Part shown: positions 11,867 through 27,470 of the stretch, piece by piece
Layout: each line of letters begins with the position of its first letter
How positions within the stretch are numbered: the first letter of the stretch is position 1
NCBI GenBank assembly: GCA_017550315.1
Contig: JAFZPN010000038.1
Location: 4,419-68,418 of the forward strand
From: Clostridia bacterium
Lineage (GTDB): Bacteria; Bacillota; Clostridia; Oscillospirales; CAG-272
Reading direction: 5' to 3'
Length of the DNA: 64,000 nt
Made by a program: the position numbers and the translations under genes
Notes under the pieces: model-generated
The model's database searches: none
What the model saw: the letters and a program-made list of their open reading frames with translations, nothing else
Told to the model about the DNA's origin: nothing

Positions 11867-13036
11867 ATGCGCATTTTCACGCCCGACGACGGGTGGCATT
11901 ATTTCTTCGGGTATTACGATCTTCAGCCCTTTGATTCGACCGAACGCTTCCACCTGATGCACCGTGTCCCCTTCATGGACAGTCTTCCGGGCCCTGACGA
12001 CACCGCAGAGCTCGGAGAGATCGATCTCGAGACCGGGGAATTCCGCAAGCTTGCCGAGACCACCGCGTGGAACTTCCAGCAGGGCGCCATGCTCCGCCGG
12101 TTCCGGGATGACGGGCACATCCTCTACAATGTCCGCGATCCGGGGACCCCGTCCGGCTTTGCCGCGGAGATCCTCGACACCGAGACCGGCGCGCGGAGAC
12201 GGCTCCCCGTACCTGCCGCCGATGTGTCGAAGGACGGACGACGGCTCCTTTCGGTCAATTTCAGCCGGATCTATGACTTCCGGCCCGGCTACGGATACGC
12301 GGGCGTCCCCGATCCGTGGAAAGAGATCCGCGCGCCGCAGGACGATGGGGTGTTTCTCACGGATACGGTGACCGGCGAGACCCGGCTGCTGATCAGCTAC
12401 GCCGCGATCCGGGAGGCGTTTCCGGAGCCCCCGTATTCCGACGGAAAGCTGCTTGTGAACCACATCACCTTCGGTCCGGCGGGAGACCGGTTCCTCTTCC
12501 TTGTGCGCAATTTCCCACAGCCCGGTCAGCGCGGCTGGAAGACAGAACTCATCGTCTCGGACCTCGAGGGGAACATGAAACGGCTCACCGGCTTCTGCCT
12601 CAATTCGCATTACCACTGGAAAAACGACCGCGAGATCCTGATCGTCTCCTCGCTCCGGACGGAAGACAGTTCTTTCGCCCTCGCCCTCATCGACAGCGAG
12701 ACCGGCGCGGCGGCTCCGCTTCCCGAACCGAATCCCGATTTCGACATCCACTGCATCTATTCGCCGGATCGCCGATGGATCGTCGGGGACAGCTATCCCG
12801 GCGGATCCCGCGGCGCGACGCGCAGTCTCTGGCTGATCGACACGGAGCGGGGTATCATGACGGAGCCGGTGCGCGTGGACACGGTGATCCCGCCCGTCGT
12901 CGACATCCGCTGCGATCTGCATGTGCGCTGGAGTCCGTCCGGGAAACTGCTTTCCTTCGATTCGACGCACACCGGACGGCGGACGTCGGTCCTGCTCACG
13001 GCGGAGGAGATCGGGATTCCTTCCGCGGGCCTCTGA
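11867..13036 (+). CDS. Beta-propeller protein, TolB/oligogalacturonate-lyase-like (389 aa)
   Basis: Repeated blade-like segments. The C-terminal DLHVRWSPSGKLLSFDSTHTGRRTSVLL resembles the terminal blade of TolB/PL22-type propellers. ATG 11867 follows AGGAGG (7 nt); the track start at 11861 is a TTG. Confidence 0.4.
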   Translation: MRIFTPDDGWHYFFGYYDLQPFDSTERFHLMHRVPFMDSLPGPDDTAELGEIDLETGEFRKLAETTAWNFQQGAMLRRFRDDGHILYNVRDPGTPSGFAAEILDTETGARRRLPVPAADVSKDGRRLLSVNFSRIYDFRPGYGYAGVPDPWKEIRAPQDDGVFLTDTVTGETRLLISYAAIREAFPEPPYSDGKLLVNHITFGPAGDRFLFLVRNFPQPGQRGWKTELIVSDLEGNMKRLTGFCLNSHYHWKNDREILIVSSLRTEDSSFALALIDSETGAAAPLPEPNPDFDIHCIYSPDRRWIVGDSYPGGSRGATRSLWLIDTERGIMTEPVRVDTVIPPVVDIRCDLHVRWSPSGKLLSFDSTHTGRRTSVLLTAEEIGIPSAGL

Positions 13037-13070
13037 TACCGAACATCTTACCTCAGAAAGGGGAATCACC

Positions 13071-14408
<1,338 letters not shown>

Positions 14409-17854: not shown

Positions 17855-19510
17855 ATGAAACCATTTCGCATCCTGCTGCTTTTCCTCGCGCTGCTCCTGA
17901 CCGTCTCTCCGGCGCTCAGCGCGTGTTCGAGGGCGGAAACGGAACCGTCTTCCCCGGAAACCGAATTGCCCGTCCCGTCGGACTCCGATCCCGAACCGGA
18001 ACCTGAACCGGAACCTGAACCGGAGCCAGAACCTGAGCCGGAGCCAGAACCCGAGCCCGAGCCAGAACCCGAGCCCGAACCGGAACCCGAACCGGAGCCG
18101 GAACCCGAGCCCGAACCGGAACCCGAACCGGAGCCTGAACCGGAACCCGAACCGATCAAAGAAGTCCCGGTCCGGTTGGTTTATTCCGACCCCGAGCAAT
18201 ACGCCCTCTATCTTGACGAGGCGATCACATACGCCAAAACGATCCACGATCTCTATTGGAACAGCGAGACCTGCCTCTCGAAGCTCACGCCCGACGGGGG
18301 AACGCCGTATATCTGGCCGTTTACCGAACAGTCGAGCATGGTGAACGGGATCCTTCTGGCGATGGACAAGGATCATCCGGACCGGGCGTATTTTGAGGAA
18401 TACCTCCGCGAACTGCTCACGGGACTGCGGCATTACCGCGTCAGACGGGTCGCTTTTGACAAGAAGACGGAGAGCTGGAACGATCCGGACAACACCCTGA
18501 CGGCCTTCGGCGAATCCGACGGCACGCCGCATTCCTATGCGATCTACGCGGCGGGGCGGCAGGACAACCGGGTGGATTCCGTCATCGCGAAGCCCGAGGG
18601 CATCTACTTCGACGACAATATCTGGGTGGCGAAGTCCTTCTATTACGCGTGGGTGAACACCGGCGACATCGCCTACCTCAACGAAGCGACGAGCATCGTC
18701 AACTGGATCCTCGGCGAGGGACGCGAAACCGCGGGCGCGCTCGACGGCATCTACTGGAACTGGGGGCGAAAATTCAAACTCCCGGCGGACGCGGGCGACA
18801 ACAACCGCGCGTCGATCAACACCTGCTCCACCTCTCCAACGACGATGGTCCTCGCCAAACTCGTCACCGCGGTCTCCGGCACGCCGCTTGAAGGTCTCCG
18901 GGACGGGTATCTCGAGGCCGCCGTCTCCCTCTTTGATTTCTGCACGGACGTCTTCGTGGATCCGTCGACGAAGTGCCTCTACGACAACATCACCCTGAAA
19001 AAGGGATTTGACACCGAAACCGAGCTGAAGAAACAGATTCTGCGGCTCGACAAGAACATGTACGCCTACAACACCGGCACCTATCTGACGGCGGGCGCGG
19101 AGCTTTACGCGCTCCTCTTTGCCGACAATCCGGAGAAAGCGGAGGCCGTCCTCTCCGCCGCCCTTGCCTCCGCGAAAGGCGCCGACAACTATTTCGCCGA
19201 CCGTACCGTGATGAAGGGCCAGTATTCCTATCCCTCACACAGCTGGTTCACCTCGTTCCTCGTCTCCGGATTCGCCGATCTCGCCGCCTATGACGAGGGC
19301 TGCGCGGAATACGAGGAGCACATGCGCTCCGCGCTCGATTTCGCGTGGAAATATCACCGCGAGAGCGACGGTCTTGTCAGTCCCGCGTGGATCAAAGGGT
19401 GGTCCCATTTCAAGGGCAAGACCGGGATCAACGAGGACAATCCCCGCCAGATCCTGTATCAGTCCGCCAACGCGCATTCCTACGCCATGCTGGCGCAGTA
19501 CTACCGATAA
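17855..19510 (+). CDS. Surface lipoprotein with (Pro-Glu)n linker and GH76-like (alpha-1,6-mannanase-like) domain (551 aa)
   Basis: Signal peptide plus LSAC lipobox, then about 28 PE dipeptides. The catalytic-domain-like block is [36 protein letters not shown]; an adjacent Asp-Asp followed by an aromatic-rich helix is typical of GH76. Confidence 0.6.
17990..18154 (+). repeat. Hexanucleotide tandem repeat (CCN-GAR)x~27 encoding the (Pro-Glu)n linker
   Basis: 165 nt of ccg/ccc/cct/cca + gaa/gag units with synonymous variation. The reverse strand reads as a (Gly-Ser)n ORF (17830-18159). Confidence 0.95.
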
Positions 19511-19575: not shown

Positions 19576-21516
19576 TCAGCTTTCCACGATCACTGCCGAA
19601 TACGCGGGGATCCGGAATGCCGGAGACTCTGCAACCTCACCGGTGAGCAGATCCCATACGGTGGGGGGCCCGCCCGCGACGGACACGTTGACTGCCGTCT
19701 CTTGCGGGCAGTTGTTCACGAGATACCAGAAGCGGCGTCCGTCCTTTTCATAGGGCGAGATGAGGATGATGCCCGGCTCCGAGGCTTCGACGCGGATTCC
19801 GGTGTCCGTCTTCTCCCGGAGGAGTGCAGCCGGATCTTCGGTCAGCGCGGCATCGATCCCGTCCGGCATCGCAGCAGTCCAGAGGAGCACACCGCCTCCC
19901 GCCTCAAACTGGGCCAGTTTCGTCCGCACATCCTCGTCCAGCCAGCGCACGGCGGGCATGACGAGCGCGGAGACTGCGAGCCCGTTCGCCGAGAGCACGC
20001 CGTCCGCAAGGTCCGCCTCCCGGATCCAGTCGCCGTCGATCAGGGTGTAGTCGAGCCCCGCCGCACCGAGGGAACGGTTGAGGTCCGCGAGGGTCTTCTC
20101 CGCCAGCCGTACGGCATCGGGGAGGGACGCGCCGCTGTTGATGCCGACGACGTCCGGATAATAATATCCCTGCGCCGTCTCGATGGGGTAGTACACGCCG
20201 ATCTCGCTGCGGAAGTGCGCGCCGCGGAGCCAGTACGCCGCGCGCCCGAACATCGCCGCGTAGAGCGGGAAGTCCTCCCCCAGCCGGTCATGCGACAGAT
20301 AGGAGTTGATGTGGTTGATCCCCGCGCGGAAGAGAAGCGCCATCGTGCCGCGCTGCTCCGCGAACGTGAAGTCCCCATCGTGGGTCTGGGCGGCGATGGG
20401 GCAGATCTCCACCATCACCCGCTCGGTCTTGCCGCTCATCCGCGCCGCGCTGCCGACGTATCGTGCCGCCATGGCGAAATCCGCCGGGGAATGCCAGTAC
20501 GATTCCGGACTGCCCGTCAGCATGTCCACGCCCGGCCAGTCGAAGGCCTTGAGCTGGCGCATCAGATCCCCGTAGAGCGGGACGTGCATCGAGAGGCTCT
20601 CTTCGAGCAGACAGTGCCCGGAGAAGGCGATCCCGTGCGCCGCGCACCACGCCTCGATCTGTCCGAAATACGCGTCCTCGGTCATCCTGGCTACCGTGCG
20701 CCAGAACCGGAGCTTGCCCTCCTCGAACCGCTCCTCGCGCGAGAAAAGCACGGGCAGATCGTCCCATAGCTCCCGGCCGTGCATCCGGCGGAACACCTCC
20801 GGCAGCTCCTCCGCCCACGGCACGAAGACAAACGGCATGGGAACGCCGCAGTTCACATAGCCGGACATCAGGCTCGGCTCGTCGGTGAAAACGGCCTCGA
20901 AACGGGAAAACCGCGCGGTCTTGTCGTAATATCGGTCGTACGTGCAGCGCAGGAACGCGGCGACGGCCTCGCGGTCCATGAGATTCGGGTAATGCCGCGG
21001 CCCCCATCCGCATTTCTGCGCGTGCGATCCCTCAAAGACGGGCCGCACGACATAGACCCGGTCCGCGCCCTCGGCGTAATTAACATCAAAGCGAACGGGG
21101 CTCCCGTCGTCCCGGCACGCATAGACGATCTTCTCGAAGGTGTCGGGCCGCACCCAGGTCCCGCCGTCCGTGCGGATCTCGGTCAGACCCCGCGCCTCAT
21201 ATTCCGGATGACCGAGCATGGTCAGGCCGTCAGCGGACGCGCTGGGATAGCCCTTTTCGTCGTAAAGCCAGACGCCCATTCCTCTCGCTTCCGCCGCTTC
21301 AATCGTACGGTCGAGCAAGAGGAAATCCCCGTCGTCGGCGAGGTAGAACGCGGGATCGCCCTTCGCCGTATGCCACGCGGCATTCGTGACGATGCCGCCG
21401 AACCCGGCCTTTGCAAGCGCGTCGAGCTTGCCGCCCGCTTCTCCTTCCGCCGCGTCGTGACGGAGCATGTACGGCCGGTCTTCGTTCTTCGGATTCAAAA
21501 ACCGCTCTCTGTCCAT
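19576..21516 (-). CDS. Putative TIM-barrel glycoside hydrolase, family not assignable by eye (646 aa); paralog of 60765-63350
   Basis: Start ATG 21516 behind AGGAGG (6 nt). It shares blocks with the 861-aa protein: FTDEPSL vs FSDEPSL, and WCAAHGIAFSGHCLLEE vs WCEAHGVQYIGHIIED. The N-terminus (FLNPKNEDRPYMLRH...GFGGIVTN) resembles GH106-type or related uncharacterised glycosidases. No signal peptide. Confidence 0.5.
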   Translation of the reverse strand: MDRERFLNPKNEDRPYMLRHDAAEGEAGGKLDALAKAGFGGIVTNAAWHTAKGDPAFYLADDGDFLLLDRTIEAAEARGMGVWLYDEKGYPSASADGLTMLGHPEYEARGLTEIRTDGGTWVRPDTFEKIVYACRDDGSPVRFDVNYAEGADRVYVVRPVFEGSHAQKCGWGPRHYPNLMDREAVAAFLRCTYDRYYDKTARFSRFEAVFTDEPSLMSGYVNCGVPMPFVFVPWAEELPEVFRRMHGRELWDDLPVLFSREERFEEGKLRFWRTVARMTEDAYFGQIEAWCAAHGIAFSGHCLLEESLSMHVPLYGDLMRQLKAFDWPGVDMLTGSPESYWHSPADFAMAARYVGSAARMSGKTERVMVEICPIAAQTHDGDFTFAEQRGTMALLFRAGINHINSYLSHDRLGEDFPLYAAMFGRAAYWLRGAHFRSEIGVYYPIETAQGYYYPDVVGINSGASLPDAVRLAEKTLADLNRSLGAAGLDYTLIDGDWIREADLADGVLSANGLAVSALVMPAVRWLDEDVRTKLAQFEAGGGVLLWTAAMPDGIDAALTEDPAALLREKTDTGIRVEASEPGIILISPYEKDGRRFWYLVNNCPQETAVNVSVAGGPPTVWDLLTGEVAESPAFRIPAYSAVIVES

Positions 21517-21548: not shown

Positions 21549-22505
21549 TCAGAACCCGCCGACGATCCCGCCGAACCCGTCGAAGGGATCGTCGATCGTG
21601 ATCCTTCCTTCCGCCGCGTCGCAAACGCCCGAATACAGATCCGCCTTCCCGTCCTCCCGCACCACGATGCCGGAGGTGAAGGTGCAGTTGCGCAGGCGGC
21701 TGAGCTTCGGCACGGACGCCGGATAACAGGACCGGCATCCGACGATCTTGAAATCCAGAACGTCCCGGGTATCCGGATCGAGCACGAACGAGGAATTGAC
21801 GTAAACCTGCAGCCGCTCCCCGTCATCCGGCGCGGTGTCCTCCCACGACATGTGGCCGATCACGCCGATCTTTCCGCTCATGAGGAAATACGCCTGGTTG
21901 GGGCCGCCCCATTCGCTGGGTCCGAAGAGACCGCGCAGCCGGGGTGCGTTTTCGATGACGTCCGCGGTCAGTTCGTCGAGGGAGGAGATCACGGCAAATC
22001 CGATCGCGGATGCCGCGCCGTCCTCATAGACGCCGTTGCGCGGACGGGAGAACACGCCGATCCGCCCGCCGTCCATCTCGACGAGCCGGATGTCCTTCAT
22101 GCGGTCGGGGCCGGTCGTGAAGTAATACAGATCGTTCAAATCGGTCCCGCGGTAGAAATAGCCGTAATAGGTGTCGATCTGCCCGCTCTTCATGCGGACG
22201 TGCGTGCCGCCCAGAACCATCTGTCCGCCGATCTTCGCCACATAGGGATCTTCGAGCTGATAGACCACGGCGCCGTTTACGGCCTTCCAGCGGTCTTTAC
22301 CAGCTTCCTCGAAGAGATGGACCGTGGAGCGCGCCCATTCATTGTGCCGCTCGACCCGTCCGTAGATGTACCGTTTTCCGTTCCACGTGAACGGAATGGA
22401 GCAGTTGTAGACGTCATACCCGTCCACGCCCTCGAAGGTCAGGAGCGCGGAATCGTAGATCCGCTTGTTCTGCTCGAAATCGAGATACTTTTTCTTGATA
22501 TCCAT
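21549..22505 (-). CDS. DUF1861-like beta-propeller protein (GH43/GH130-clan fold; 318 aa)
   Basis: LTFEGVDGYDVYNCSIPFTWNGKRYIYGRVERHNEW..., MKDIRLVEMDGGRIGVFSRP..., EWGGPNQAYFL..GKIGVIGHM and a C-terminal ITIDDPF match my recollection of DUF1861 family proteins. SD GGGAGG (8 nt). The gene starts 29 nt downstream of the GRE stop. Confidence 0.5.
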   Translation of the reverse strand: MDIKKKYLDFEQNKRIYDSALLTFEGVDGYDVYNCSIPFTWNGKRYIYGRVERHNEWARSTVHLFEEAGKDRWKAVNGAVVYQLEDPYVAKIGGQMVLGGTHVRMKSGQIDTYYGYFYRGTDLNDLYYFTTGPDRMKDIRLVEMDGGRIGVFSRPRNGVYEDGAASAIGFAVISSLDELTADVIENAPRLRGLFGPSEWGGPNQAYFLMSGKIGVIGHMSWEDTAPDDGERLQVYVNSSFVLDPDTRDVLDFKIVGCRSCYPASVPKLSRLRNCTFTSGIVVREDGKADLYSGVCDAAEGRITIDDPFDGFGGIVGGF

Positions 22506-22534
22506 CTTGTATTCCTCCCGTTATCGGGTTGCCG

Positions 22535-24685
22535 TCAGATCTCGGCGTGCTCCGTGCGGTGCAGAATGTCCTCCTGCACGGCCCGGTCGAGGGAGACAAA
22601 GTAGGCGGAGAAGCCGGAGACGCGCACCACCAGATCGAGGTAGTTCTCGGGATGCTCCATCGCGTCCATCAGGGTCTCGCGGGAGACGCAGTTGATCTGC
22701 ACCTCCTGACCGCCGCGGTGGAAATAGACCTTGATCGCGGAGAGCAGCGCGTCGCGCTTGACCGGATCGGTCAGCATGTCGGGCGTGTATTTCTGGTTGA
22801 CCACCGTGCCGCAGGAGACCAGCCGGTAATCCGGCTTCGAGAGGGAGAGGAACGCGGCGGTGGGGCCTTCGCGGTCCATGCCGTAGGTCGGGGAGGCGGC
22901 GTCGGAGAGGGGAGCCCCCGCATGGCGCCCGTCGGGGGTCGCGCCGGTGCTCTTGCCGCAGTAGACGCTCGCGGTGTTCGACGCGATGGCGGTGTAGAAG
23001 GGTCCGCCGTCCCGGGTGTGATACTGAGAGAACACGGCGTCCGTGAATTCCACGAACCACACGGCGTATTTGTCGACGAACGGATCGTCATTCCCGTATT
23101 TCGGCGCGGCGGCGAGCTTGGCCCGGAGCCGTTCATAGCCGGCAAAATCCGCGGCCATCGCGTCCCGCAGCTCGGCGAGGGTGCAGGTCTTGTCGAGATA
23201 CACGTTCTTCTCGATCGCGGCGAGGGAATCGGCGACGGTGGCGATGCCCATCATGCACGCGCCGTGCGCCGAGGGATACAGCGCGCCGCCCGCATTGATG
23301 TCCATGCCGCGCGCGATGCAGTCCTCGCAGAAGACGGACATCCACGGCTCGGCATAGTTGCGGTAGTTGATCCCGCTGTTCATGTTGTTGAATTCGGCGG
23401 TGTATTCCGACGCGGCATACGCGACCTGCTGCTCGTACGCGCCGAGGAAATCCTCCATCGTGACGAGATCCTCGAGCGGACCGGTGTCCAGCCCGAGATA
23501 GGTGTCGTCCGACATGGATTTCCCGCGGAAGAACACGGCCTCGAGGAATTTCGGCATGTTGAAGCGGCCGTCGGACCACGCGGGCTGCCGGCCGGGGATG
23601 AAGTTCTCGATGCAGCCGACGAAGCAGTAATCGCGCGCGTGTTCGGGCCGGTAGCCGTGACGGGCGAGCGCGGGGATGTTTACCCGGTCGTTCATCAGGG
23701 CGGGATAGCCGAGCCCCGTGCCGATCACCCGCAGGCATTCGTCGATGAATTCGTCCGGGATCCCCTCGTGCAGCCGCGCGGAGAGATTGGGCCCCGGCAC
23801 GTTGCAGTCGCGGACGGCGTGCAGGATGCGGTAGGAGAGCTCGTTGACGCCTTCCTGCCCATCCGGCGTGACGCCGCCGATGCAGATGTTCACGACGTCG
23901 TCCCCGCCCGTCCAGCGGCTTTCCGTCAGCTTGATGAAGACGGAGGCGAAGAGATCTTCCGCGTCCTCCGGGGTGAGGATCCCCGCCTCGATGTCGTGCC
24001 GGTAGTAGGGCAGGAGGTACTGATCGAGACGGCCGAGCGCCATCGCGTACTTGCCCTGGAAGGGGAAGGAGAGATGGATGAGCCAGACGAGGTTCAGCGC
24101 CTGACGGAGCGTCACGGGCGGCTCGGAGACCACGGCGCAAAGATCGGCGGCCAGCCCTTCGAGTTCCCGGCGGTATTCGTCGGAATCGGTCGCGGCGGCA
24201 GCTTCCCGCGCGGCTTCGGCATACCGGCCGACGAAGGTCTGAAATCCCTCCGTGACGAGCCGCTGCGCCGTGAGGAATTCCGTCTTTGCCGCGTCGTCCC
24301 GATGCGCATCCAGCGAGGCGTCGATGCGGGCGAGGGTCCCCCGGATGCCGTCGGCGAGGAAGCGTCCGTATGCCGGGGCGAAGTGGTCGGAATTGGTGCC
24401 GAAGTGGAGGGAGCCGTAGGAGGCGAGAGTTTTGCGCGCGGCCCGGAGTTCCGTTTCGTCGTATTCCGTGACGAAATTGCCGCGCCGGTTTCCCGCGATC
24501 CGGTCGCAGTCATAGACCGAGGCGGGGAAGCGCTCGAACCACTCCTTCTGCGCGAGCGCTTTTGCCATGAGCGGCGTCTTATCGAAATTCTTCCGCAGAG
24601 AACGGTACCGGATCAGATCCGTGGCGATATATTCGCCCGCCGGTCTGATTCCCACCGCTTTCCGTATGGCTTCGAGATGTTTCAA
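22535..24685 (-). CDS. Glycyl radical enzyme, PFL-like superfamily, eliminase/dehydratase-type active site (716 aa)
   Basis: Glycyl radical motif VRVSGFSAYF sits with its Gly 26 residues from the C-terminus. ATPDGRHAGAPLSDAASP block present. The thiyl loop FVGCIENF is Cys-x-Glu, as in CutC/GDH/PD-type GREs, not the Cys-Cys of PFL. Start assigned to TTG 24685 behind GGGAGG (9 nt). In-frame upstream codons cross the promoter region and the divergent gene. Confidence 0.85.
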   Translation of the reverse strand: MKHLEAIRKAVGIRPAGEYIATDLIRYRSLRKNFDKTPLMAKALAQKEWFERFPASVYDCDRIAGNRRGNFVTEYDETELRAARKTLASYGSLHFGTNSDHFAPAYGRFLADGIRGTLARIDASLDAHRDDAAKTEFLTAQRLVTEGFQTFVGRYAEAAREAAAATDSDEYRRELEGLAADLCAVVSEPPVTLRQALNLVWLIHLSFPFQGKYAMALGRLDQYLLPYYRHDIEAGILTPEDAEDLFASVFIKLTESRWTGGDDVVNICIGGVTPDGQEGVNELSYRILHAVRDCNVPGPNLSARLHEGIPDEFIDECLRVIGTGLGYPALMNDRVNIPALARHGYRPEHARDYCFVGCIENFIPGRQPAWSDGRFNMPKFLEAVFFRGKSMSDDTYLGLDTGPLEDLVTMEDFLGAYEQQVAYAASEYTAEFNNMNSGINYRNYAEPWMSVFCEDCIARGMDINAGGALYPSAHGACMMGIATVADSLAAIEKNVYLDKTCTLAELRDAMAADFAGYERLRAKLAAAPKYGNDDPFVDKYAVWFVEFTDAVFSQYHTRDGGPFYTAIASNTASVYCGKSTGATPDGRHAGAPLSDAASPTYGMDREGPTAAFLSLSKPDYRLVSCGTVVNQKYTPDMLTDPVKRDALLSAIKVYFHRGGQEVQINCVSRETLMDAMEHPENYLDLVVRVSGFSAYFVSLDRAVQEDILHRTEHAEI

Positions 24686-24721
24686 TGCATGATTCCTCCC
24701 TTGAAGCGGATCTATGCATCC

Positions 24722-24750
24722 AGTATAGCACAAGAAAGCGCGGAAAGCAA
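24722..24750 (-). promoter_or_regulatory. sigmaA-type promoter for the GRE operon
   Basis: Minus strand reads TTGCTT (24750-24745), 17-nt spacer, TGcTATACT (-10 at 24727-24722), about 35 nt upstream of TTG 24685. Confidence 0.55.
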
Positions 24751-24811
24751 GCCTCCCTTTGCAGGATTCGCGCAAAAAACGAAAGGATATCACCGATTTC
24801 CGCGTTTGCCC

Positions 24812-24840
24812 TTGCGAAACCGTCCGGCTTATGCTATACT
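24812..24840 (+). promoter_or_regulatory. sigmaA-type promoter for the SGNH hydrolase gene
   Basis: TTGCGA (24812-24817), 17-nt spacer, TGcTATACT (-10 at 24835-24840). Confidence 0.55.
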
Positions 24841-24887
24841 GGTCTTGCAAGGATCCCCGAATTCTCATGGAACGGAGTTGAATCGAG

Positions 24888-25868
24888 ATGAAACTCATAG
24901 CCTGTACCGGCGATTCCCACACCTGGGGGCAGGGAGGCGCGGGCGTGCGGGATGCGTTCGACAAGTGGACCTCGCCCGTCATCGCCGGAGAACACCGGAT
25001 GCTCCCCTTTGCCACGGGAGCGTATGTCAATCTCCTGCGGGAGTACGTAAACGCATATACCGGCTCCTCCGCGTCGGATTATGAGGCGCCGGTCCTGTGC
25101 CGGGCCTTCGGACTCGAAGCGGACGGGAACTGCGCGCAGGCAGACGGGCTCCGCTTTCCCTTCGACGGCGCGCTTCTGCGGCTGCAGTTCCGCTATACGC
25201 CTGCGCATGTCCGCGCCGCGGTCCGTGTGGACGGGGAGACGCTCTGGGAAGACGATCTCTTTCGCGAAGAGCGGAGCAATCCCTACAACCTCGTCACGCT
25301 GATGCTCCCGGACGGCCGTCACTGCGCAGAGATCACGGGTCCCGGCGCGCCGCTGTACCGCCTCGAGGTTTACCGCGGACCGTGGGCGGTGGTCAACTGC
25401 GGCGTCGGGAGCTGTCCCGTCGGAAAGTTTCTCGCGGAATACTACGACAAACTGGTTGCGCCGCTCCGTCCGGTCGCCGTGCTGGCGGAAGGGCATACGA
25501 TCAACGACTGGATCGTCGACCGGGATGCGGACGAGCAGGAAGAGAACATGACCGCCTTTTTCCGCCGGATCCGCGCAGACGGGGCCGATCCGTGGCTTCT
25601 GACGGTGGAACCGATCCTCGGCTCGCTCGCGTCCCCTCTCTCCGGGCACCCGTTCGGGGATTTTGACGAGGCTTGCCGCCGCGCCGCACGAGCCGAAAAC
25701 GTACCTCTCATCGACGCCTATGCCGCGCTCGCCGAAAAGCTGGACGCGTTCCCGGACGAACAGGCGCGCTTTGACGCCTGGTACGAGGACAACTGGCATC
25801 CGAACGCTGCCGGTCACGCGCTCTACGCCTCCCTCTCTTTCGACGCGCTCCGGCACATCCTCGCCTGA
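24888..25868 (+). CDS. SGNH/GDSL-family hydrolase (probable carbohydrate esterase; 326 aa)
   Basis: Block I is ACTGDSHTWG (GDS with the Ser nucleophile). Block V is DNWHPNAAGH (DxxH). Confidence 0.75.
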   Translation: MKLIACTGDSHTWGQGGAGVRDAFDKWTSPVIAGEHRMLPFATGAYVNLLREYVNAYTGSSASDYEAPVLCRAFGLEADGNCAQADGLRFPFDGALLRLQFRYTPAHVRAAVRVDGETLWEDDLFREERSNPYNLVTLMLPDGRHCAEITGPGAPLYRLEVYRGPWAVVNCGVGSCPVGKFLAEYYDKLVAPLRPVAVLAEGHTINDWIVDRDADEQEENMTAFFRRIRADGADPWLLTVEPILGSLASPLSGHPFGDFDEACRRAARAENVPLIDAYAALAEKLDAFPDEQARFDAWYEDNWHPNAAGHALYASLSFDALRHILA

Positions 25869-25904: not shown

Positions 25905-25933
25905 TTGCATATCCGCGCGGGATATGGTATAAT
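25905..25933 (+). promoter_or_regulatory. sigmaA-type promoter for the binding-protein gene
   Basis: TTGCAT (25905-25910), 17-nt spacer, TGgTATAAT (-10 at 25928-25933). Confidence 0.65.
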
Positions 25934-25970
25934 CAAATCACCACTACTTCATCGAAAAGGAGAAGTTCCC

Positions 25971-27470
25971 ATGAAGAAAACCGTCTCTCTGATTCTCTGC
26001 TTCCTGATGATCGCCGGACTCTTTGTGTCCTGCTCGGAAAGCGGCACGAACGCGGATCCCTCCGCTCAGACGCAGGATGTCTCTCCGGCGGACGGCGGTA
26101 CGGCCGAGGACACGCCCGCCGAAACGGAATACGACCGCTCGCATGTGCCGGACAATCTGCCCGCGCTCGATTTCGGCGGCGAGACCGTCGTGATCCACTC
26201 CCGCGGCGACTCGGAATCCGTCAACGAAGTCGTCTCCGAAGAACTAACGGGCGAAGCCGTCGCCGATTCCGTGTATGAGCGGAACGAAATGGTCTCCGAC
26301 CGTCTGAACGTGAAGATCGAGTGCTTTGCCGGCGACGGCTGGGAGAATTACAACAGCACCGTCAGCGCGCTTCGCTCCTCCATCATGTCGGCGGACGGCG
26401 CCTATGACATCATCGCCGGATGGTCCGCGAGAATCCCCGCGCTCTCCCTCGAAGGGCTGTTCCTCGATTACAACAAGCTGCCCTACATCGATTTCGGTCA
26501 GCCGTGGTGGAACGATTCCGTCACGAGCGAGCTCCAGATCGGAAACAAGCTCTACTTCATCACCGGCGACATCGCCCGGACGATGCTCTCCGCGATGTGC
26601 GTCTATGCCTTCAACCAGAAGGTCGCCGTGGACGAACAGATCGAAAACCTCTACGACGTCGTGAACGAGCACCGCTGGACGATCGATTACGTCTACGATC
26701 TCACCTCGAAGATCCATGCGGATTCCGACGGCAACGGCAAGGCTGATCAGACGGACTACTGGGGACTGGTCACGTCCTCGGTCAACGACGCGGACGGCTA
26801 TATGCAGGGCTCCCTGGTTTCGATGGTCGACCGCGATGAGGAAGGCTATCCCGTCCTCTCCGTCGATGAAGAGTTCATGGCGGAGCTCGTGACGAAGGTC
26901 TACCGTCTCATGTGGGAAAACGAGGGCTGCTACGCCATCACCGGCGACGGCACCAACATCAAGGACACGCTGGCGCAGGACAAAGCACTCCTCGCCACGA
27001 CGCGCATGGTCGCCGTGGTCTCCAACCTCGGCGATATGGAGAGCGACTACGGCATCCTCCCCTATCCGCTGGTGAACGAGAATCAGGAGCATTACGGAAC
27101 CCGCGTGCAGGATGCGGTCTCCCTCTGGTGCGTGCCGATCGACGCGAAGAACAGCGACATGTCCTGCGCCGTCATGGAAGCGCTCGCGGCGCAGAGCTGG
27201 CGCACGACGACGCCCGTCTATTTCGATATGGCATTGAAATCCCGCTATTCCCGCGACCCCGAAACCTCGGCGATGATGGACCTCATCAAGGACAGCGTTC
27301 TCATCAATTTTGAGTCCCTGTACAACGAATCCATCGGCAATCCGTGGTTTGTGCTCCGGACCCTGATGCCCCAGAAGAAGGACAATTTCGCCTCCTACTG
27401 GGCCTCCAACAAAAAGGTCATCACCAAGACGATGGAAAAGGCGATGGACAAGATCCGCAGCCTCGACTGA
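25971..27470 (+). CDS. Extracellular solute-binding lipoprotein (ABC family-1-like, 499 aa), paralog 1 of 3
   Basis: MKKTVSLILCFLMIAGLFVSCSESG is a lipoprotein signal. Size and the blocks ...YDIIAGW...PWWN... and C-terminal TPVYFDMALKSRYSRD match the large sugar-binding lipoproteins of Firmicutes. Paralogous to 41879-43375 and 59192-60727. Confidence 0.7.
   Translation: MKKTVSLILCFLMIAGLFVSCSESGTNADPSAQTQDVSPADGGTAEDTPAETEYDRSHVPDNLPALDFGGETVVIHSRGDSESVNEVVSEELTGEAVADSVYERNEMVSDRLNVKIECFAGDGWENYNSTVSALRSSIMSADGAYDIIAGWSARIPALSLEGLFLDYNKLPYIDFGQPWWNDSVTSELQIGNKLYFITGDIARTMLSAMCVYAFNQKVAVDEQIENLYDVVNEHRWTIDYVYDLTSKIHADSDGNGKADQTDYWGLVTSSVNDADGYMQGSLVSMVDRDEEGYPVLSVDEEFMAELVTKVYRLMWENEGCYAITGDGTNIKDTLAQDKALLATTRMVAVVSNLGDMESDYGILPYPLVNENQEHYGTRVQDAVSLWCVPIDAKNSDMSCAVMEALAAQSWRTTTPVYFDMALKSRYSRDPETSAMMDLIKDSVLINFESLYNESIGNPWFVLRTLMPQKKDNFASYWASNKKVITKTMEKAMDKIRSLD

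Follow-up and report, generated by a model that had tools for sequence, protein, structure and literature searches.

Here we describe a glycyl radical enzyme (GRE) gene on the minus strand of a 64,000-nucleotide stretch of Clostridia bacterium DNA (assembly GCA_017550315.1, contig JAFZPN010000038.1, positions 4,419 to 68,418; hereafter the window). The gene encodes a genuine GRE of the Cys-x-Glu class, a new, uncharacterised member of a well-known kind of enzyme, and it belongs to a compact, uncharacterised clade of these oxygen-sensitive enzymes from Clostridia with proteins of about 700-725 amino acids. We consider it probable that this is a functional, 1,2-eliminase-like enzyme, a reading that takes in a mechanism, a class of substrate and activation in trans. 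The gene and its start signals are the following.

22535-24685, minus strand: GRE coding sequence, 716 amino acids, TTG start, stop codon included (Pfam, AlphaFold2, Foldseek).
24683-24685, minus strand: start codon TTG, aligned with the ATG start of the orthologues L094, L095 and L001.
24695-24700, minus strand: Shine-Dalgarno sequence GGGAGG with a 9-nt spacer to the TTG, read directly from the sequence.

Membership of the GRE superfamily is supported by the Pfam models PFL-like (PF02901, 452 bits) and Gly_radical (PF01228, 104 bits), both far above their cutoffs. An AlphaFold2 model computed from 63 family sequences has a mean predicted local distance difference test value (pLDDT) of 92.6 and a predicted template modelling score (pTM) of 0.92. 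In Foldseek it aligns with more than 40 solved GRE chains at query TM-scores (TMq) of 0.85-0.92, which supports the ten-stranded beta/alpha barrel fold. The nearest structures are from B12-independent glycerol dehydratase (GDH; TMq 0.92, 29% identity), CutC, the 1,2-propanediol (PD) dehydratases and HypD, all at 24-30% identity; by sequence, the best PDB match is CutC (about 35% identity, E 1e-120), and this is the maximum to any solved GRE. The sequence-only reading that preceded this analysis had taken the protein for a divergent dehydratase- or lyase-type GRE, and the family scores agree with it. The NCBIfam subfamily model TIGR01774 (PFL2-3) gives 444 bits against a cutoff of 678, as for an outlier clade, and no equivalog cutoff was reached for CutC, HypD, HpsG/HpfG, PFL, HPAD or IAD (score/cutoff 407/1050, 395/1100, 367/1000, 350/1000, 155/994, 263/1150 and 247/1100). 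An exact-sequence look-up of the protein returned no record.

The short length is a property of the clade. In a survey of the best 150 cluster representatives among 1.84 billion protein clusters, full-length proteins of 690-726 amino acids occur in the compact clade only, in line with the earlier remark that the enzyme sits at the short end of its family. About 15 clusters within these 150 are of the short type (690-726 amino acids, 39-54% identity); each of them whose C-terminus is intact carries RVSGFSA, and where a simple pattern picked up the Cys loop it reads GC[IV]E...PW[SAG]D[GSC]R. The next representatives in rank are ordinary GREs, 733-940 amino acids long, whose alignment begins only at query residue ~97. 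Length and pocket were analysed in an alignment of 121 family members with fetched reference sequences of GDH, CutC, a HypD, YbiW and PflD. In it, the approximately 71 residues by which the window GRE is shorter than GDH are internal deletions ahead of barrel strand beta1 and, in one case, beta3, namely about 9 residues near the N-terminus, 16 and 10 at GDH 83-108, 28 at GDH 126-153, and 9 at GDH 322-330, directly ahead of strand beta3; the N-terminal helices are kept and aligned. The clade is the shortest PFL-like GRE type seen here, and it recurs in gut, rumen and digester Clostridia.

The unusual start codon stands. Minus-strand positions 24700-24683 read GGGAGG-aatcatgca-TTG, and translation from the TTG gives 716 codons with the end at 22535. 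The beginning of the gene corresponds codon for codon to an orthologue with an ATG start (ATG AAG CAT CTG GAA in L094, TTG AAA CAT CTC GAA in the window). Homologues at 52-99% identity that span the query end to end number more than 120 and are 703-730 amino acids long. Since the orthologous ATGs align and the homologues are of equal length, the TTG start and the 716-residue length proposed in the sequence-only reading are right; the GGGAGG and its 9-nt spacer are also as stated there. Two alternatives were rejected. The stop-to-stop frame extends upstream as far as 25030, but a longer start in it would overlap the divergent SGNH esterase gene (from 24888) and its promoter, and no homologue is so long. 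N-terminal truncation or a wrong start is contradicted by the N-terminal helices, whose pattern had been pointed out before and which align with the N-termini of GDH, YbiW, PflD and HypD, and by the match of the TTG to the orthologous ATGs.

The catalytic loops and two predicted pocket residues are placed as follows.

22598-22627, minus strand: Gly loop VRVSGFSAYF, residues 687-696; Gly691 codon at 22613-22615, aligned with GDH G763.
23591-23623, minus strand: Cys loop FVGCIENFIPG, residues 355-365; Cys358 at 23612-23614 and Glu360 at 23606-23608.
24383-24385, minus strand: codon of His101 in strand beta1, in the column of GDH His164, HypD His160, CutC Asp216 and IslA Gln193.
23564-23566, minus strand: codon of Arg374 in strand beta6, in the column of CutC Tyr506, HypD Tyr450 and GDH Phe450; invariant in the family.

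Both loops lie where they had been read, and their Cys and Gly are not misaligned: Gly691, Cys358 and Glu360 share columns with GDH G763, C433 and E435, none of the three varies within the family, and Cys358 and Glu360 are also aligned with YbiW C441 and E443 and with the Cys-loop residues of CutC and HypD. The segment G-C-I-E-N is invariant in the 121 members apart from one Ile359->Val. RVSGFSA is invariant in all of them, whereas the six reference Cys-x-Glu GREs, eliminases and isomerases, uniformly have RVAGYSA; RVSGFSA conforms to the Gly-loop fingerprint RVxG[YFW] with the radical Gly in place. Other GRE clades commonly show the single substitutions RVAGF, RVSGY and RVTGY, and therefore the Ser and Phe that had been singled out as peculiar, and are real, constitute a signature of the clade rather than an anomaly.

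The alignment reproduces at constant offsets the published numbering of HypD (R156, H160, D278, F340, C434, E436, Y450, T645) and of CutC (D216, T334, F395, C489, Y506), and the residue mapping is therefore reliable at the sequence level; the ligand-contact roles in GDH are taken from a review and the alignment. His101, invariant in the family, sits in the GDH His164 and HypD His160 column. This beta1 site is a common substrate-contacting position among GREs (PMC8473560), and GDH His164 has been proposed to act as general acid towards the hydroxyl that leaves (PMC13450708), a role that we infer for His101 from its column. Asp372 corresponds to GDH Asp447 and is kept with one exception in 121 members. 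It is the only residue retained from the GDH-type pocket (H281, S282, Y339, D447, Y640), the others being Y213, A214, V264 and A568.

The remaining positions differ from the characterised enzymes as well. Thr97 lies in the column of HypD Arg156 and IslA Arg189, the Tyr213-Ala214 pair that replaces GDH His281-Ser282 includes the column of HypD Asp278, and Val264 takes the place of GDH Tyr339 and CutC Phe395, as Ala568 does that of GDH Tyr640. Asn361 is family-invariant and is Pro in GDH and CutC; Asn570, also invariant, is in the column of HypD Thr645 and IslA Phe682. The column of the invariant Arg374 has been described as pointing at the substrate, and the motif PW[SA]D[GS]R surrounds this residue in the broader short clade. 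The PD dehydratase 9RCO carries the GDH-type pocket motifs, not the set found here. As aligned, the predicted pocket would match no known GRE and would be more polar, with a conserved cationic residue; the aligned positions differ at several sites from GDH, PD dehydratase, CutC, HypD, YbiW and PflD, so that the pocket identity which would have refuted the sequence-only reading is not seen. The invariance of Arg374, Asn570 and Tyr213 points to a small substrate of polar, perhaps anionic, character.

The genomic context of the family was scored in 96 loci by tblastn, clustering of the neighbours and Pfam searches of the cluster representatives. Seventeen loci (at least 66% identity to the window GRE, 14 of them with at least 1.2 kb of downstream sequence) form the window's own clade, and 79 (45-66% identity) are sister loci. 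An activase gene is present in 58 of the 79 sister loci, directly downstream on the GRE strand. The other recurrent partners are listed here.

Zn-dependent alcohol dehydrogenase (ADH) of the medium-chain dehydrogenase/reductase (MDR) type: 47 of 79 sister loci, downstream on the GRE strand; 1 of 17 in the window's clade (L142).
AraC regulator: 23 of 79 sister loci, divergent; 1 of 17 in the window's clade.
Any esterase: 22 of 79 sister loci, almost always on the GRE strand; 3 of 17 in the window's clade.
SGNH/GDSL_2 esterase: 11 of 79 sister loci; 2 of 17 in the window's clade (the window and its 99% twin L105).
SASA esterase: 7 of 79 sister loci; 1 of 17 in the window's clade (L095).
Lip_C lipase-like protein: 4 of 79 sister loci; 0 of 17 in the window's clade.

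The ancestral module is therefore a divergent AraC gene followed by GRE, activase, optionally an esterase, and ADH. Of the esterase, activase and ADH partners, the window locus retains only the divergent SGNH esterase. The ADH is a polyol/threonine dehydrogenase kind of MDR enzyme; its best NCBIfam match, far under the cutoff, is the phosphonate-catabolism-associated ADH, and its closest PDB relative is an uncharacterised Thermotoga Zn-ADH. Links to glycan utilisation are seen in L103, where the gene order is solute-binding protein, ROK, GH4, two ABC sugar permeases, NagB-like, SGNH, GRE, activase, ADH and GH36/31-like, and in L010, where a GH38 gene lies directly 3' of the ADH gene. In L142, whose GRE is 76% identical to that of the window, a Zn-ADH gene directly follows the GRE gene (+146 nt) with no activase between them, the sole such locus in the window's clade, and perhaps a stage that the operon passed through as it broke up. 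The missing activase, the partnership with esterase and ADH and the probably co-transcribed glycoside-hydrolase-like genes had not been seen in the sequence-only reading.

From the identity of the enzyme, its fold, motifs and clade signature, the gene linkages and the purifying selection described below, we infer the chemistry, the substrate class and activation in trans. The reaction is probably the dehydration of a small hydroxylated compound freed by an esterase. Three esterase families recur in the operon, and we argue from this that the substrate, or a precursor of it, comes in esterified form. Most likely the substrate is a small molecule, hydroxylated and polar and, because Arg374 is invariant, possibly anionic. 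The linked esterase, in the window the divergent SGNH protein, would free it by de-esterifying glycan- or lipid-derived material. For the steps that follow, the mechanism that we propose is modelled, by homology, on the Cys-x-Glu GREs (PMC13450708). A radical S-adenosylmethionine (SAM) activase encoded outside the window would install the radical on Gly691, from where it would be transferred to Cys358. The Cys358 thiyl radical would take a hydrogen from the carbinol carbon of the substrate, Glu360 would deprotonate the hydroxyl of the attacked carbon, and His101 would protonate the vicinal leaving hydroxyl, with loss of water. The product radical would then regain a hydrogen from Cys358 to yield an aldehyde or ketone, and in the sister clades the co-operonic Zn-ADH would most likely reduce this carbonyl product, serving as an electron sink.

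Tentatively, we go further and suggest that the compact RVSGF clade may act on a substrate class new to GREs, an esterase-liberated, glycan- or lipid-derived polyol or hydroxy-acid that would be held by the invariant Arg374, Asn570 and Tyr213 and handled jointly with a Zn-ADH, and that in the window's clade the enzyme may no longer depend on a dedicated activase encoded alongside it. The GREs of known function in a 2026 review are only eliminases of the C-O (six), C-N (one) and C-S (three) types and three isomerases; the review lists no GRE of such size, pocket or partner set, and it stresses that whole GRE clades lack an assigned function (PMC13450708). Literature searches gave nothing on the compact RVSGF clade, nothing relevant on GRE together with SGNH, and one irrelevant paper on DUF1861; no title or abstract among the listed GRE papers since 2024 characterises the compact clade.

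A number of observations weigh against the eliminase-like reading. Cys-x-Glu and the beta1 His occur also in the isomerases YbiW and PflD. The pocket is assigned by sequence alignment to published positions. The counts over the 96 loci were made without de-replication and include some near-duplicates, the esterase link holds for only about 28% of the sister loci, and gene contexts are variable in the window's clade. Tblastn with the family's own ADH found no such gene in the window. The same search with the family's activase gave no match in the window, the six frames hold no CxxxCxxC open reading frame (ORF) of more than 150 amino acids, and an adjacent activase is found in 0 of 17 loci of the window's clade, so that activation is assumed.

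Linkage of a GRE gene to that of its activase is usual, not obligatory, and the missing local activase lowers confidence in local completeness, not in the identity of the GRE. The ratio of non-synonymous to synonymous substitution rates (dN/dS) within the activase-unlinked clade is 0.11-0.20, indicating purifying selection, and several sister operons are without activase but with ADH. A trans-encoded activase is therefore the simplest reading, and we take the enzyme to be activated in trans from outside the window.

An alternative that we regard as unlikely is that the enzyme is a GRE isomerase like YbiW, PflD or HplG. The thiyl radical and Glu360 would then act on a sugar-derived cyclic substrate to open its ring at a C-O or C-N bond, and leave a keto isomer to be reduced by the ADH. 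The sequence-only reading had treated Cys-x-Glu as the hallmark of 1,2-eliminases; the motif is present, but YbiW, PflD and HplG keep it too (PMC13450708), and therefore it alone cannot separate a net eliminase from an isomerase. The beta1 His common to YbiW and PflD, the glycan-utilisation context of the loci and the polyol/threonine dehydrogenase type of the ADH fit an isomerase. Nevertheless, GDH, CutC and PD dehydratase rank over YbiW and PflD by both structure and sequence, the pocket columns are unlike those of the two isomerases, and no aldolase or phosphotransferase system (PTS) genes occur near the GRE gene, unlike in YbiW-type loci.

It seems rather improbable that the compact enzyme is isofunctional with the glycerol/1,2-propanediol dehydratases and performs a known reaction in a new scaffold. 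Glycerol freed by esterases or lipases and glycosidases from, for example, acylglycerols or glycosylglycerol lipids would then be converted by the GRE to 3-hydroxypropanal and by the ADH to 1,3-propanediol. GDH is indeed the top structural match, its His164, Glu435 and Asp447 are conserved, the GRE-activase-ADH layout mirrors dhaB1-dhaB2-dhaT, and lipase-like and GDSL partners occur in the operons. However, the positions of GDH H281, S282, Y339, F450, Y640 and S642 hold Y, A, V, R, A and N, with strong conservation across the family, whereas the PD dehydratase 9rco has the GDH-type motifs, and the PFL2-3 score remains below its cutoff (444 versus 678).

We give little credence to a lyase that expels an anionic or non-hydroxyl group by C-S, C-N or C-P cleavage, like IslA, HpsG or CutC. 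The invariant Arg374 at a substrate-facing beta6 position and the faint phosphonate-catabolism match of the ADH speak for it, but at the beta1 site it has the His of dehydratases where CutC has Asp and IslA has Gln, the sulfonate triad Arg-Gln-Arg of IslA, IseG and HpsG is absent (T97 stands in the IslA Arg189 column), and no sulfite- or amine-handling genes lie near the GRE gene. Finally, a decaying or non-radical relic left after loss of the linked activase, which the 0 of 17 against 58 of 79 adjacent activases and the activase-free window might suggest, is hardly credible for an intact ORF with all catalytic residues invariant, a dN/dS of 0.11-0.20, copies at 99% identity in other metagenomes, and several activase-less sister operons that keep the ADH.

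Around the GRE gene, the window holds the following features.

24722-24730, minus strand: putative GRE promoter, extended -10-like TGcTATACT with a weak -35 TTGCTT at 24750-24745 and a 17-nt spacer; read by eye.
24812-24840, plus strand: TG-extended promoter-like site, TTGCGA-17-TATACT, in front of the divergent SGNH gene; consensus scan.
24888-25868, plus strand: SGNH/GDSL-type esterase, 326 amino acids, divergent from the GRE gene; Pfam Lipase_GDSL_2.
25905-27470, plus strand: large extracellular solute-binding protein after the SGNH gene; clusters with solute-binding-protein-like GRE neighbours in 14 loci.
21549-22505, minus strand: DUF1861 protein (Pfam, 375 bits), beginning 29 nt past the GRE stop.
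19576-21513, minus strand: glycoside-hydrolase-like protein of about 645 amino acids after the DUF1861 gene; faint alpha-L-rhamnosidase match, no Pfam match.

The putative GRE promoter was not reported by the consensus scan, its -35 fitting at 3/6 positions only. At 24682-24690 on the minus strand, 4 nt past the Shine-Dalgarno sequence, there is a two-codon mini-ORF ATG-CAT-TGA whose stop overlaps the GRE TTG (ATGCATTGA); it is absent from the orthologues that start with ATG and could influence initiation at the weak TTG. An 851-residue antisense ORF at 22529-25084 (plus strand), spanning the whole GRE gene, was rejected as a high-G+C artefact and not a gene; such antisense ORFs cluster across loci merely by mirroring the conserved GRE.

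The GRE gene seems to head an operon with the genes for DUF1861 and the glycoside-hydrolase-like protein. No minus-strand terminator-like site lies between the GRE and DUF1861 genes, which are probably co-transcribed. DUF1861 was rejected as a conserved partner: it is absent beside the GRE gene in all other family loci, and the pairing is unique to this organism. The window as a whole is a glycan-degradation island with GH4, DUF4838, a GH76-like lipoprotein, DUF1861, a BNR propeller, GH36/31-like and large solute-binding proteins; the representative of the solute-binding-protein-like neighbour cluster, from L122, matches SBP_bac_8. The lipoprotein-like gene at 17855-19510 (plus strand) encodes a signal peptide, a long Pro-Glu (PEPE...) repeat run and then a weak GH76-like domain. 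Rfam models gave no match at their gathering scores in any part of the window, neither for a tRNA or riboswitch nor for another RNA, and hence no RNA clue to a ligand.

The SGNH esterase of the window has its GDSH, TIND and DNWH blocks intact and an insert of about 120 amino acids, and it is a full-length orthologue of the in-operon SGNH proteins of L087 (36% identity), L004 (55%) and L103 (36%). It is found at 13 GRE loci and has no PDB sequence relative at E<=1; with 110 proteins at E<=1e-10, the family to which it belongs is small. Sampled from the SGNH side through three contexts (L099, L101 and L103), the gene adjoins a DUF4838 gene in L099 and PIG-L and AraC genes in L101, both without a GRE. 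One family protein (P0302, 470 amino acids) combines an SGNH homologue with an ADH_N domain in a single call; it is a fusion, or else neighbouring SGNH and ADH genes were merged when called. In L004, whose operon is without activase, the SGNH orthologue 3' of the GRE gene (12150-13132) is split into a 40-residue ORF with the GDSH block and a 287-residue ORF in another frame, and is either a frameshift pseudogene or an assembly error.

Two further observations concern the wider superfamily. A scan of genome contigs returned seven close loci only; the remainder were from Streptomyces, Bacillus and others and held distant GREs. Proteins resembling GREs, at 27-30% identity, are found in many Streptomyces, Bacillus, Zooshikella and cyanobacterial genomes (L033-L085), unexpectedly for mostly aerobic organisms, and may be the non-canonical aminoacyl radical enzymes of PMC11528403. 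The full-length CutC of K. pneumoniae (PDB 9f3w) has a long N-terminal extension, and its residues 183-342 give a second match to query residues 154-309; the extension therefore has the look of an incomplete and degenerate copy of the N-terminal part of the GRE.

The esterase, the Zn-ADH and the glycan-gene context offer a concrete way, open to testing, towards a new step in the anaerobic breakdown of glycans or lipids. Moreover, one subclade has systematically lost its linked activase and is a natural test case for activase promiscuity, and the small size of the enzyme could be convenient where a scaffold is needed for structural studies or biocatalysis.

Among the known systems, GDH of Clostridium butyricum (DhaB1, PDB 1R8W/1R9D) is similar to the window GRE in overall structure (TMq 0.92), in the barrel, the Gly and Cys loops and Cys-x-Glu, in the pairs H164=H101 and D447=D372, and, in the sister clades, in the operon logic of GRE, activase and alcohol dehydrogenase. 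However, identity over the structural alignment is 29%, the window protein is 71 residues shorter by internal deletions, it carries the changes H281Y, S282A, Y339V, F450R, Y640A and S642N and RVSGF instead of RVAGY, and the partner ADH is of the Zn-type in the compact family and of the Fe-type for GDH. CutC (PDB 5A0U, 5FAU) is the top PDB sequence match and belongs to the same Cys-x-Glu class, but its choline-binding Asp216 is replaced by His101, Tyr506 by Arg374 and Phe395 by Val264, no microcompartment genes accompany the window GRE, and the TIGR04394 score is 407 against a cutoff of 1050.

The 1,2-propanediol dehydratases (Roseburia 5I2A; 9RCO) share the fold (TMq 0.91-0.92) and the dehydratase-type beta1 His with the window GRE, which in contrast is without their GDH-like motifs GHVSVDYG, GHSISPG and GWHDAAFFN. 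The anhydro-hexitol-6-phosphate isomerases YbiW and PflD have in common with it Cys-x-Glu, the beta1 His and a carbohydrate-linked context; they differ in identity (27-28%), in pocket columns and in their loci, which contain fructose-6-phosphate (F6P) aldolase and PTS genes where the compact family has esterase and Zn-ADH. HypD, the trans-4-hydroxy-L-proline dehydratase, is similar in His160=H101 and in the dehydratase chemistry predicted here, but R156, D278, F340, Y450 and T645 correspond to T97, Y213, V264, R374 and N570, and its model scores 395 against a cutoff of 1100. Against all these enzymes the compact clade stands out by its invariant, distinctive set of aligned pocket residues.

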